Source: a virus
Length of the DNA: 64,000 nt
Direction: 5' to 3' (one strand)
Virus record (IMG/VR): IMGVR_UViG_3300008050_000036
Coordinates: 9,606-73,605 of that record
Made by a program: the position numbers. Each line of letters starts with the position of its first letter. The first letter of the stretch is position 1. Below are positions 57,001 to 64,000 of the stretch, one piece after another.

Positions 57001-60000
57001 GAATGGTTGGGGATTACCATATTCGTTAGCGGCCATTTGACGGGCTTCATCCATATCTCCCCCTGCTGCATCTATTATTTCCCAATCAATATCTTCATCC
57101 CTTAACCCATCAAGATATTCTACCATGTCATCTTCATCAACATTTATATCTTTTAAGCCGAAAAGATGCGCCGCAATGCCACCCAACCTTGCTTCATCAG
57201 CAATGCCCCACTCTAATGCTTCTTGAAAAGTAGGGCTTTTCTCCTGCACTAAATCCAAAGAAGAAGTATCACCATATTTAGTATTAAATACTGAATAAGG
57301 GCTTATATCTCCGTCTGTAAAATCACCTAATACTTTCGACCACCAAGCCTCTAAGGGGCTTCTCATTACATTGTCCGGCGCAGACATTAAATGACTATTC
57401 ATAAAATTATTATTACCACCAATTAAATTAAAAGGATGCCTCGTAATGGTATTTTGCAGGGCCGAGCGTTGCCCCCTATCTGAATCTTTTGGCACTTTAG
57501 CCACCATATCATGGGTCGGTATATTGAATACTCTTGCTTCAAGACCTTGACCCAATGGAGTAGGGATAGGGCCAAGAGGTAATTGATATTCCCCCTCATC
57601 TTCATCAAAACCATATTGCTGACCTTCTTTATCAAAAAAATTATTAGTATTTTCGTCTAAATAAAACCCTCCTTCACCAAACTGCTCTAAAGCAGCATTA
57701 AAATCAAATCGGTTAAAGGGCGACATAGTTAATCGCTCTCTAAACTCTTTGTAGGCTGCCTCATCTGCGGTGGCTTTTATTAGACTGGCTTCAACTCCAC
57801 AACCACAAGAACATTCATCCAAAGTATCATCACTACGATGTAGTAATTGCCAATTCTCAGGGAAGGCTTCATTTACAATTACTGCGCTGTTTTCATCATC
57901 AGGGTCAAAAGTATGGATGGGGGTATTGTTTCGTATGTATGCGTCAGGTTTTGGGCTTATCCATTTATCACCTTGCCTAAACCCCGCTAAACCCCTCCAA
58001 TCTCTAACATTGGGTATAAATTGATTAACATAATTATGCAAAACATCAGCGTTATCTTCCTGTCGTTGCGATACCCGTTGGTTTAATTCGTTAGCCGCTT
58101 CCAGTGAAGTCATGCGCCTAAATCCTTCACGATGGCCGGTTTCATCTTTAGGGGGTAGTGCAAGAGAAGGAGGGAGGTGTTTTAAGGGGGGTTTTTTAAC
58201 AGGTAAATATCTTTGGGGGGTGTCCCAACCACCCGACATTTGGCCTGAAGGATTAACATTCCACCAATAATCTGTTAATAATTCTTTGTGGGGCAATGTG
58301 CCTTCGCGTGTTAATTTTAATAATTCACTAATTGGCGTATTTTTTATTGTTTCTAATATATTTGCTCTATCTTTATCATAAGGATTAGGTTGAAAAAAGG
58401 GTTGGGGTTTATTTTCTATTCTATTTTTTTTCGCTTCGTTTAACCGGCCCACCAAATACTCTAATTTGTTTTTTTCAGGTATGTCTTGGTTTTTATCAGC
58501 AGGGTTTCCAAACATTAAGGATTCAACATAAGAGGGTGATACCCACCCCTTTTGAGAAAACTTGGCGCGGGCTTTAGGGTCGGGGATAAAACGGTATATG
58601 CTATCTGTATCTAAATACCAACGTAGCATATCATTTGGCGAAGGTTGAATATCTCTCCTACTTCCTTCGTATTTCTTATCCCTCATATTCATTTACCCCC
58701 CTTTGGGTAAATGCCGTATAATGCTAACATTTTCCGTCTTTCATCTTCGTCAATACCCGGAGTCGCAGACCAAGCACCATATTCTTGAAACCTCTCCCAA
58801 TCATTATCCACTTTGGATTGAGCAACCCTCTTTTCCTCATCAGACGCATCATCAGGTAATTTGGTGCGAACAGCATTCCAAATATCATCAGTATGGGGTG
58901 GGTTAAGGGCTTGGTGGGTGGATTCATGTGCTAAGATTTGCATTACCCTGTTCATTCGCTCTTTGTCTGAGGTCATGTTTCTAAATGCAGGTTCAATACG
59001 ATTTGAAAGATTGACGAATGCTTCATCGGTGTTCATATCATATCCACCGGCCATTAGGATATTAGGAAAACCGCCCATAAAACGAAAGTCTTTGACTATG
59101 AGCCACGCTTGTTCAAATGCACTCATTCGGGCCACCCCGTTCCGTTGCACATATCGCATTCACGGCCTCTATAATCTCCATCCCCCCGACATTGAGCGCA
59201 AACTACGATTGTTTGCTTTGTTTCAGCATATTCCTTATCGTGAGGGAATAATTGTTCACACTTACCACACCACCAAGCGGCTACTCTCGGATAGCCAAAA
59301 CCAAACGAAGTCCATTCTTGGGTTCTTTTTGAACCACAATTCGGGCAAATGTCATTATTATTGAACTCGGCTACTGGTTCACCCTCTTTGAGTAATTTGA
59401 AGGCTCTATTAAATGCACTCATTTACCAGTCACCCAACCAATGGCCCATACAAAGGGCAAACATACCAACAATATAGGTATTACGACTAATACAATGCCC
59501 AAAAGAGCAAAATCACCCATCATTCCCCACAAACCATTGGTTTTTGTTTGGTGGGTTTTATGGGTCAAACATCTCCCCCCTCTCTTGGGGCATCGTGAAA
59601 CCACGTTAATGCCGTTTCATCCCACGGCCCCCAAGTGTTATGCTCAAGCATTTTTTTATTCATTTCATCAACATTGTAGCGTATTATATCGTCTGAATTA
59701 AACCTCCCAAAGAAAGAATACAAAGCCAATGGTAATCTTGTGTCAGTAGAAGGGTCATAAGCCCATTCCATGTGTTCCCCCTCCACTGGTTCACCTTCAT
59801 GCACTTTACCTTCCAAATCACCCATGTAAGTAGTGAAAGCGTGTCCGTATTGCCTACCTTCAATTGGCCCCTGACCAGTCACTTGAGCATGAGCAAGTGA
59901 ATACCCCGGATTTGAACAAACCCATCTCCCTGCTTCCATATAACAATCCCCGTTTCTATTTTCTTCAGGAATATCCCCTTCTGCTTCCTTGAGCAAATCC

Positions 60001-63000: not shown

Positions 63001-64000
63001 CTTGGATAACGGCTTCTGCATCAATTCTGCGAGGAAAATGGGGTGAAAATGCTTCTCCCTTCAACAAACCCCAAGCAGTATCAAAAGCGGTCATGTGTGT
63101 CCTCTCCATCCGTATTCGTGAATTGAATTACCTTCGCTAAACAAATCCTTTGCCTTTACTGCCCTTCTAAGGAGTTTATACCCACCTTCGCCATGTCTGC
63201 CATGTCCGAATCTCATTCCATGTTCTTTCGCATAACCTTTTGATGTTGAAACCCAATCTCCGGGGTTAATTTTATTTCCTTCAATTTCATAAGGAACGGT
63301 TCTATAAACAAGCACCTTTGCATCAGGTTTGTTTCTAACTGACATAATGATTGAATGAGAGTGTCTATCTCGTTCCTGTGATTCTTGGCTACCATCCCCA
63401 TAGTATCGCACCCCTAAATGCGAATACAAATCTTCAGGATATATCCCGGTCATGTCATGCAAGGGCGAATGGTAATCGGGTTCAATCGGGGCTACATGGT
63501 GTCCTCGATAATCGTCAATGTCCTCTTTGACTAAACCCCATGCTCGTTCAAATGCGGTCATTCCATCCCTCCTAATAGGTCGCCGAAACCAGTAAAAGAT
63601 TCTTGAGAGTCGGGTGCATTCTTACTTACAAACATTTCAATTTTGTGTGAAACACCTGTATTTTTTAATGCTCGCAACACTTGATTTGGGGTCGCCCCTC
63701 TCAATGAATAATCAAGATGCCAATTATAGCCACCTAAACCTCCACCTGAATCAAATACAATACCCCTTTCTTCTAACTGGGCTTTTAATTGCCAAATAGC
63801 AAAATCTTCATCTTGGTTTATTGGTGTAATATGAACATCATAATACACCCATTCATCAGCCTTAAAAAGCCCCCAAGCAGTATCAAAGGCGGTCATTCAT
63901 ACATTCTCCTTTCTGCTATTTCCTGAACCGCCTCATTTTCTCTAAATTGAGGATGCGACCTCAGTTGATTCCATGCCCGCATAGGGTCGGTATGTTGAAG

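Follow-up and report, generated by a model that had tools for sequence, protein, structure and literature searches.

A gene array with a shared N-terminal leader

The window analysed here, a 64,000-nucleotide (nt) stretch whose positions are counted from its first base, is the last 64 kb of the 73,605-bp virus record IMGVR_UViG_3300008050_000036 of IMG/VR. Near its end, ten minus-strand genes (g1–g10) occupy positions 58689–63896, overlapping by 1–4 nt, and nine of these ten consecutive genes start with the same short peptide, here called the tag, and then diverge completely. The array had been singled out in an original prediction, which took the leader as a portable label for loading diverse proteins ("cargo") into the prohead of an archaeal virus; the leaders quoted there were all confirmed from translations of the open reading frames (ORFs). 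Their consensus is M-[TSN]-[AS]-F-x-x-A-[WF]-x-Φ-Φ-K, where Φ is a hydrophobic residue.

The first gene, g1 (63558–63896, 112 amino acids (aa), leader MTAFDTAWGLFK coded by 63861–63896), carries a cargo that was not assigned to a family, had no Pfam match and gave a single, weak PHROG match (E 0.018). The cargo of g2 (63091–63561, 156 aa, MTAFERAWGLVK) resembled the C-terminal part of a phage ParB-type family (phrog_2579, "ParB C-terminal domain", E 2.4e-35, profile positions 335–463 of 472), and a phmmer search of it against PDB sequences returned chance-level matches only (E at least 0.69). g3 (62399–63094, 231 aa, MTAFDTAWGLLK) contains a DGHHR motif and possibly a ParB_N/Srx-like domain; the Atlas offered a lead, and a lead only, to a viral ParB_N cluster (score 0.91, 146 shared features), and neither Pfam nor PHROG gave a match. 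g4 (61050–62402, 450 aa, TTG start) is a multi-module gene in which the tag is followed by an HExxH module, a linker GEPMEVTMRLLK, a middle module, a second linker GEPMEVAMRLLK and a Zn-ribbon module; its Zn-ribbon/DnaJ-CXXC matches were weak and below the Pfam cut-off. g5 (60340–61053, 237 aa, MNAFDKAWDIVK) is predicted to have an ADP-ribosyltransferase (ART)-superfamily fold. The cargoes of g6 (60023–60343, 106 aa, MTSFERAWDLLK) and g7 (59565–60023, 152 aa, MTAFERAWDLLK) matched nothing in Pfam or PHROG. g9 (59123–59422, 99 aa, MSAFNRAFKLLK) encodes a Cys-rich Zn-ribbon protein with a homolog in the final module of g4; its Zn_ribbon_PaaD match (E 2.1e-5) fell short of the Pfam cut-off. g10 (58689–59126, 145 aa, MSAFEQAWLIVK) contains an HExxH motif. 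The only gene without the tag, g8 (59419–59604), encodes a small peptide with one long hydrophobic, membrane-like stretch (FALLGIVLVVIPILLVCLPFVWAIGWV) and no Pfam or PHROG match, in line with its earlier description as a membrane peptide.

In g1 and g9 a stop codon stands directly before the ATG, so that the leader must be the N-terminus; in g3, g6, g7 and g10 the longest ORF extends further upstream, and an internal Met marks the beginning of the leader. By eye, a GGAG/GGTG-like stretch was found a few bases upstream of each leader. The array lies upstream of, and on the same strand as, a block encoding terminase, portal, protease and major capsid protein (MCP). The virus record and a complete 108,315-bp relative (G002) were syntenic through the tail and head modules; between 51 and 64 kb of the window a thermosome gene was the only ORF with an ortholog in G002, and the array is thus hypervariable between related genomes.

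Conservation of the leader as a peptide

The degenerate pattern GCN TTY N6 GCN TGG N3 NTN NTN AAR matched the window eight times, always on the minus strand, against 0.00 expected (100 dinucleotide-preserving shuffles, largest value 0). With a position matrix derived from tags on other contigs, 13 matches of at least 12 bits were obtained on the 73.6-kb contig, again all on the minus strand; the maximum in five shuffles of this contig was 8.2 bits.

For the first, second and third codon positions, the mean pairwise nucleotide identity among the nine leaders was 0.76, 0.80 and 0.48, and the longest exact run common to them was 18 nt. Over 162 N-terminal tags (collected as described below), all four Ala codons and both codons of Phe, Lys and Asp were used. 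Because synonymous sites vary, the peptide is the conserved entity. Conservation at the DNA level alone, which the original prediction had named as a sign of a pure recombination or regulatory element, was therefore not found. The codon of Ala-7, before TGG, was GCC in 2 of 158 tags, and at Ala-3 GCC was the commonest codon (76/160); the bias at Ala-7 would reflect a local nucleotide constraint or dinucleotide avoidance on top of selection on the peptide.

Within the residue classes permitted by the search expression, the 162 tags read M, T (134), A (160), F (162), D/E (155), any residue, A (158), W (158), any residue, L/I/V (160), L/V/M/I (161) and K. The residue after the Lys was most often M (51), A (43), E (16) or S (11); counted per cargo cluster, the order was A (16), M (12), E (11) and S (8). 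A Met at this place (P1′ of a putative cut) could represent a preferred K/M site, as at the protease/scaffold boundary described below (a slash marks the bond after the Lys), a second start, or the own start codon of a captured gene. A secretory or class III signal peptide was considered and rejected, judging from the 12-residue length, the acidic fifth residue (Asp or Glu, 155/162 tags) and the lack of a continuous hydrophobic core.

Distribution of the tag

To collect further examples, the DNA pattern ATG ACN GCN TTY GAN NNN GCN TGG GNN YTN NTN AAR was used to fetch 46 stretches on 38 distinct IMG/VR contigs, and a looser peptide expression was then run on the fetched loci and the window contig. 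It gave 230 matches, one of them likely false (in a non-coding frame). The match lay directly after ATG, GTG or TTG in 182 cases and had a Met no more than five residues upstream in 27, leaving 21 placed otherwise; in many cases a stop codon was found 2–3 codons upstream. After deduplication 162 N-terminally tagged proteins remained, with cargoes of 41–513 aa (median 160) that fell into 77 blastp clusters, the largest with 23, 15, 14 and 12 members and 59 of them singletons. The leader is thus a portable module on unrelated cargo, as had been proposed. The largest locus held up to 11 unique N-terminally tagged genes within 11–13 kb.

Two genomes were scanned whole. G002 had 15 matrix matches of at least 12 bits, all on the coding minus strand, with a cluster at 36.6–44.6 kb and single copies at 6.7, 24.4 and 33.9 kb. 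The cluster lies upstream of the terminase-portal-protease-MCP block (8.8–21.4 kb), on the same strand, and no tag was found in the G002 tail genes or in its plus-strand block with a UvrD-type helicase, a PAPS reductase domain and a thermosome. Across both scans, the tagged genes were variable accessory ones, with a handful of small genes close to the head module, much as the original prediction had expected for accessory and head genes, and no tagged tail gene, MCP, portal or terminase was detected. The surroundings of 80 further MCP loci (77–91% identity in the MCP), ~957 kb in all, contained nine tag matches, every one in a small gene and several of these genes Cys-rich.

All ten tagged records tested carried this MCP lineage (65–88% identity). 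The haloarchaeal virus HVTV-1 gave no matrix match of at least 6 bits in bases 1–100,000 of its 102,319. As far as tested, the tag is confined to this capsid lineage.

Exchange of the tag with Φ-Φ-K linkers

g9 aligned with residues 350–446 of g4 (49% identity, E 1e-29), and the end of its tag (AFKLLK/EGEP) stood opposite an internal AMRLLK/GGEP of g4. The two linkers of g4 are coded by a 37-nt repeat (61337–61373 and 61697–61733, 95% identical). Similarly, LIVK/DFRF of g10 aligned with an internal KIVK/EFRY of longer, fused relatives that bear a further module in front. Where homologs of tagged cargo lay inside longer ORFs, nine distinct junctions without a canonical tag were found; eight had a Lys at the position of the tag Lys, and five had the complete Φ-Φ-K.

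The terminal Lys and the S78 prohead protease

Because both the peptide expression and the fetch pattern demanded the Lys, its frequency was recounted in N-terminal x[AS]Fxx[AGS]W proteins without this requirement. Position 12 was Lys in 190/194 of these proteins; among the 124 that had not been picked up through the Lys-containing fetch pattern, the figure was 120. Two of the four exceptions have a Lys one residue later.

The gene at 27611–28945 (minus strand) encodes an S78 prohead protease (PF04586, E 9.9e-10, 39.2 bits against a cut-off of 21) with a scaffold-like C-terminal part. His68 and Ser126, invariant in 19 relatives, are the putative catalytic residues. Together with the kinship of the MCP to that of HVTV-1, this match bears out the earlier call of an archaeal tailed virus with its own protease at this place. 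The S78 proteases HK97 gp4 and T5 pb11 cleave after Lys (PMC13517437), and two mapped cuts in phage phi12 have R or K at P1, the residue before the cut (PMC8569155). The Lys at the end of the tag, which had been proposed as a cleavage site, fits the P1 preference stated for S78 proteases (PMC13517437).

Φ-Φ-K sites were also counted in alignments of unique relatives of the head proteins. In the MCP (26440–27597, minus strand; HK97 fold family, PF17236, E 7.4e-9), the site at residue 37 (GTDLLK/AD) was kept in 55/56 sequences; it reads ELLK/AD in two relatives at 64–65% identity and aligns with MSK/AD in HVTV-1. In the protease, residue 18 (DFILK/S) was kept in 46/48, residue 173 (YTLLK/M), at the end of the S78 profile and hence the protease/scaffold boundary, in 48/48, and the linker sites K302 (YVIK/Q) and K322 (QVIK/Q), in an otherwise variable scaffold stretch, in 48/48 each. 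The K18 and K173 sites persisted in a relative of 34% identity. A small head-module protein (33225–33575, minus strand, 116 aa) had ATADLLK/E at residue 14 in 28/28. Each genome uses all Φ-Φ-K variants. For the mature N-terminus of the HVTV-1 MCP, the consulted parts of PMC4284463 and PMC3950731 gave nothing.

The cargo

The g5 cargo family was the largest (23 members). An AlphaFold model built on a 21-member alignment (A1) had a pLDDT of 81.7, with the tag as a helix at residues 3–11 and the first strand at 14–20, a predicted structure that agrees with the proposal of an amphipathic helix followed by a domain right after the Lys. By VIA-align the model matched Tpt1/KptA with Z 8.9 (root-mean-square deviation 2.6, 88 aligned residues), cholera toxin A1 with Z 6.9 and DarT with Z 6.1. 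Foldseek matches in PDB were weak (best E 0.034), and the list was dominated by ART-superfamily chains; in the viral library the best E was 6.6e-4, and the top matches included a putative phage RNA 2′-phosphotransferase, DarT and large mycobacteriophage proteins annotated as ParB-like. His17 was invariant in the 21 sequences. At the level of a fold match to the predicted model, the g5 cargo is thus an ART-superfamily protein. The homolog search behind A1 gave 60 proteins, 48 of them with an N-terminal tag; it cannot show that untagged relatives are absent, because candidates were gathered by shared 5-mers and the tag supplies such words.

HExxH, present in g4 and g10 among others, was found in 17/162 cargoes and in 75/4101 background ORFs, a crude background made of all stop-to-stop frames. 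The g10 model (pLDDT 69) had no clear fold match (best Foldseek E in PDB 2.7). At least two CxxC were found in 20/162 cargoes. Most tagged genes are single-module, with g4 and the loci L001, L018 and L037 as multi-module exceptions. PHROG searches with ten large neighbouring proteins of the window gave one weak match without meaning.

Internal, C-terminal and variant tags

The original prediction had confined the tag to 58689–63896. This held for the nine array genes, and further copies were found outside the array, at 44464–44496 and 53682–53714, with variants between 45829 and 46195 (all on the minus strand).

The copy at 44464–44496 (NDAFEDAWSIVK, 21.4 bits) lies at about residue 144 of a 581-aa Lys/Arg-rich protein (43168–44913, minus strand) with a long low-complexity stretch. 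The N- and C-terminal parts of this protein aligned with a 436-aa ortholog in G002, relative to which the tag and the stretch after it are an apparent insertion. Its composition would allow a basic, DNA-binding internal head protein as a possibility. The variant at 53682–53714 (DAFEIAWDTLLK) is at about residue 163 of the product of 52521–54155 (minus strand), in which an N-terminal Cys-containing part, the tag variant and a C5 DNA methyltransferase domain (PF00145, E 1.1e-12) follow one another.

A second small array (45362–46414, minus strand) consists of three or four tiny Cys-rich genes in which AFR(T/I)GW(A/S)VVK stands near the N-terminus or internally; the three variants AFRTGWSVVK, AFRIGWAVVK and AFRTGWAVVK (45829–46195), each ahead of a small Cys-rich peptide, were found with the peptide expression, two of them at 15.3 and 17.5 bits on the matrix, less than the main tag scores. 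These genes could carry Zn-knuckle cargo or a distinct subclass of the tag.

A GP88-like relative in G002 (PF17338; 32752–35088, 778 aa) has the tag at residue 387, directly before the GP88-like part; the GP88-like protein of the window (51305–52513, minus strand, 402 aa) has another leader, of 14 residues and ending in ALVK. On two other contigs (L035:552–1295, plus strand; L046:13100–13822, minus strand), a ~245-aa Cys-rich acidic protein has a variant N-terminal tag (MPTAFRIAWDS...ILK) and also a canonical tag 2–4 residues from its C-terminus. This doubly tagged protein may be a bivalent adaptor rather than cargo.

The virus and its lineage

The window encodes an HK97-family MCP, the S78 prohead protease with its scaffold-like part, a portal (34591–36405) and a large terminase, besides a thermosome subunit and a C5 methyltransferase. 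The MCP was 33% identical to those of haloarchaeal siphoviruses, over 99% of the length for HVTV-1 and HCTV-5 and over 90% for HCTV-1. Such a kinship to haloarchaeal siphoviruses has been reported for the MCPs of magroviruses, which carry a thermosome gene in one group and a ligase within the structural module (PMC5434244). Among 185,579 prokaryote species (one genome each), the leader pattern had two matches, both on one 106,262-bp contig (L141/L142/L143). The record of this contig is titled as a Poseidoniales single-cell assembly, and the contig carries the same MCP, at 80% identity, along with tagged genes. Nearly as long as a complete virus genome and placed in a single-cell assembly of the presumed host, it links virus and host directly. 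On the basis of the MCP kinship, the magrovirus-like gene content and the single-cell contig with the same MCP, we read the window virus as a tailed virus of Poseidoniales, related to magroviruses and assigned to no named group.

The thermosome gene (54251–55879, plus strand) encodes a full-length group II chaperonin (PF00118, E 1.3e-166) and lies inside the variable region, on the strand opposite to the array; the G002 thermosome is 46% identical and located elsewhere in its genome. At the tail end of the structural block, positions 3–12876 (minus strand) hold two giant ORFs of >2,567 and 1,731 aa with orthologs in G002. A 1,169-aa protein is encoded at 28974–32483, directly upstream of the protease. 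In HVTV-1, a ~1,310-aa protein annotated as "zeta toxin" (68622–72563, L060) is encoded two genes upstream of the prohead protease, on the same strand, with one small gene and an opposite-strand HNH gene in between. The tagged array may have its untagged counterpart in such large effector-like proteins of the head module.

A proposed role in head loading and delivery

It is near certain that the tag is a shared recognition signal acting at the protein level, and cleavage after its Lys is somewhat more probable than not. We propose that the leader is a two-part portable propeptide of one lineage of marine Poseidoniales (marine group II, MG-II) tailed viruses. Its first part, an N-cap followed by A-F-x-x-A-W, would make up one side of a short amphipathic helix (F4, W8 and Φ11; A3, A7 and Φ10) and dock the protein onto a common receptor in the assembling prohead, which may be the scaffold, the shell interior or the protease. 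Its second part, Φ-Φ-K, would be the cleavage site, with Lys at P1, for the S78 prohead protease of the virus, which would remove the tag or, where the site is internal, separate modules. The released cargo (ART-fold enzymes, ParB-type domains, HExxH and Zn-ribbon proteins, a C5 methyltransferase and a basic protein) would stay in the head and enter the host with the DNA, and the array, as a hypervariable locus for effectors, would correspond by analogy to the locus of the internal proteins in T-even phages. We infer each of these steps: docking, cleavage and the enzyme behind it, packaging and ejection. The full chain, from docking like that of the T4 capsid-targeting sequence (CTS) through S78 cleavage to ejection, is drawn by analogy, and we put it a little short of an even chance. 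It is the best fit to a hypervariable, effector-like gene set that is co-oriented beside morphogenetic genes and whose N-terminal helix ends in the expected protease site.

Several observations weigh against this proposal. About 21 of the 230 tags are internal or otherwise placed, including one family near the C-terminus, where cutting would leave the tag on the protein. The Met at P1′ of 51/162 tags might mark a further start of translation, without the tag. Φ-Φ-K is a common tripeptide and several such sites in head proteins were unconserved (protease K384, 12/48; R protein, 1–27 of 35), so that the tripeptide alone is insufficient and the rule is loose; moreover, AFxxAW is missing from the N-terminal sites of the MCP and the protease, which have only Φ-Φ-K in common with the tag. 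The cut might be made instead by HExxH peptidases, or possible Cys peptidases, that are themselves cargo. The assignment of HExxH cargo to zincins or MPTases stays at the motif level, because the g10 model had no fold match, and none of 20 cargo representatives from other contigs matched at curated Pfam cut-offs. Tagged proteins are known from sequence alone, and HVTV-1, the nearest cultured relative, is untagged in its first 100,000 bases, for which reason its published proteomics is not transferable. Complex prediction with the protease-scaffold protein (alignment A2), the MCP (A3) and residues 1–165 of g5 (A1) scored 0.00 in two runs without controls and counts neither for nor against binding.

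A different enzyme might act at the same bond. Cargo-borne peptidases (HExxH zincin-like, possibly Cys) might cut at the tag end and at the other Φ-Φ-K junctions, before packaging, in the head or after entry, with AFxxAW as the recognition element of that peptidase or a separate docking element. HExxH is indeed enriched among the cargo, g4, L018 and L037 are alike in placing the HExxH module first, then a tag or linker and then the Zn ribbon, and MPTase domains have been proposed to autoprocess polyvalent proteins into functional units (PMC5512222). We nevertheless regard this as quite unlikely: P1 Lys and the Φ-Φ-K sites conserved in protease, MCP and scaffold speak for the S78 enzyme, the g10 model did not confirm a zincin fold, and HExxH cargo was found in 11 of 21 loci with at least four tagged genes, a weak count as the loci are partial. 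Cleavage might also play no part, the tag being an uncleaved short linear motif (an F-x3-W-x2-Φ helix) that docks many proteins onto one hub outside the capsid, such as a host machine or a viral replication or chaperone factor. The helical spacing of F, W and Φ with near-invariant small A3 and A7 would suit a groove-binding peptide, internal and C-terminal copies occur, one protein being tagged at both ends, and the virus encodes a thermosome subunit. A docking motif, however, needs no bias towards the start codon, which 182 of the 230 tags follow directly; Lys closes 120/124 unselected tags, Φ-Φ-K linkers stand in for the tag at module junctions, and the cargo resembles delivered effectors, not replication factors. 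A hub of this kind is thus unlikely.

An in-plane amphipathic helix taking proteins to the membrane would agree with the amphipathic pattern and with the membrane-like peptide as the sole untagged gene of the array, but is very unlikely for a helix of only ~9 residues that is acidic at position 5 in 155/162 tags, is found inside soluble Zn-binding and enzyme proteins, and shows a residue-specific conservation (A3, F4, A7 and W8, counted within the classes given above) beyond the needs of lipid binding. A degron or timing signal, by which a viral or host protease destroys or activates tagged early proteins at a set time and nothing is packaged, would account for a shared N-terminal element with a basic P1 residue and for an array outside the core head module (with as few as nine tags in the ~957 kb around 80 MCP loci). 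We hold this to be highly improbable. We know of no archaeal degron like the tag, the array is co-oriented with the morphogenetic block and continues directly from it, and the cargo repertoire is that of packaged or delivered phage effectors (PMC5512222). A DNA-level element, a recombination cassette boundary or translational control with the peptide as a by-product, might be suspected from the repeats at every gene start, the 18-nt exact run and the avoidance of GCC at Ala-7; free third positions and the use of all synonymous codons largely rule it out, and the motif is also kept internally and C-terminally, where no start-site function applies.

Comparison with known systems

The head-packaged Alt of T4 is an ADP-ribosyltransferase, and the largest tagged cargo family is likewise predicted to be ART-fold. 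The T4 prohead protease cuts after Glu, whereas Lys is expected for the tag. T-even internal proteins are diverse defence proteins that share only the CTS, which encapsidates them into the T4 scaffolding core (PMC3012670). In both systems (IPI–III and Alt in the T-even phages) a short N-terminal peptide stands on unrelated, fast-evolving proteins of a variable locus. The tag differs in its archaeal host domain, in an S78 protease rather than one of the T4 gp21 type, in larger arrays, in its internal and C-terminal copies and in its alternation with Φ-Φ-K linkers; the likeness is meant as an analogy only.

Propeptides of giant phages are long, are not known to be one shared 12-mer, and are removed by another protease family with another cut-site rule. 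Maturation of the phiKZ and SPN3US heads includes cleavage of many internal proteins by the prohead protease, at a short consensus (PMC7411985, PMC10052503). Polyvalent proteins, as described in the parts consulted of PMC5512222, have MPTase, ART, DdrB-type ParB and methylase domains as hubs and are predicted to be delivered with the DNA and processed into units; a shared leader is absent from that description. The repertoire found here is similar (ART, ParB-type, HExxH, methylase and Zn ribbons, of which the ParB-type and MPTase likenesses are at the match or motif level), but it is mostly encoded in separate genes, each with its own leader. Because most tagged genes are single-module and few are joined, the array is a split form rather than a strict member of this class.

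Cargo-loading peptides of encapsulins are also short and bring diverse cargo into an HK97-fold shell, from either end of the cargo. They are not known to be removed, have another consensus and serve a cellular compartment. DarB of bacteriophage P1 is a head-packaged methyltransferase protein, of which the product of 52521–54155 is reminiscent; to our knowledge there is no shared leader in that phage. Its Dar system packages methyltransferase-bearing and ParB-type proteins (DarB, DdrB) in the head to protect incoming DNA, DdrB being processed before packaging (PMC5512222), and loading depends on DarA/Hdf (PMC12810830).

Novelty and significance

No paper describing the tag was found, the matches listed for full-text searches with the peptide string being unrelated words, and "magrovirus" did not occur among the matches listed for a literature search aimed at these viruses. 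In the searched main text of PMC5434244 and PMC11706807, neither "N-terminal" nor "paralog" occurred, nor did "motif" in that of PMC5434244. As far as these searches reach, the principle of a CTS is known, and the peptide, the host domain, the link to an S78 protease, the array size and the interchange of tag and linker are new.

A broader idea, which we regard as doubtful, sees in the tag the visible part of a proteolytic grammar used throughout the virus: AFxxAW would address the HK97-fold prohead, in the manner of an encapsulin loading peptide, and Φ-Φ-K would mark every S78 cut. If so, the delivered arsenal would be built, split and reshuffled by moving 36-nt leaders and linkers, every marked gene would be a virion-delivered anti-host effector, in an archaeal virus that is uncultivated and abundant worldwide, and an "injectome" could be read from sequence. 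If instead the tag docks on a host hub, many viral proteins would target a single vulnerability of the host.

Of the archaeal viruses in the surface ocean, those of Poseidoniales have been described as some of the most abundant (PMC5434244). None has been cultivated, and most of their genes are without recognisable function. If the proposed head loading is true, the T4 capsid-targeting principle would extend to archaeal viruses and to the S78 protease family, the tag/linker exchange would give a hint at how polyvalent effectors are assembled and disassembled, and the leader would be a candidate packaging tag for engineered particles, including archaeal virus-like particles. The repertoire (ART-fold, ParB-type, peptidase-like, methyltransferase and Zn-binding) would become countable from metagenomes, and dozens of dark genes per lineage would receive from their leader a first common role and location, as head-loaded proteins that are delivered to the host.

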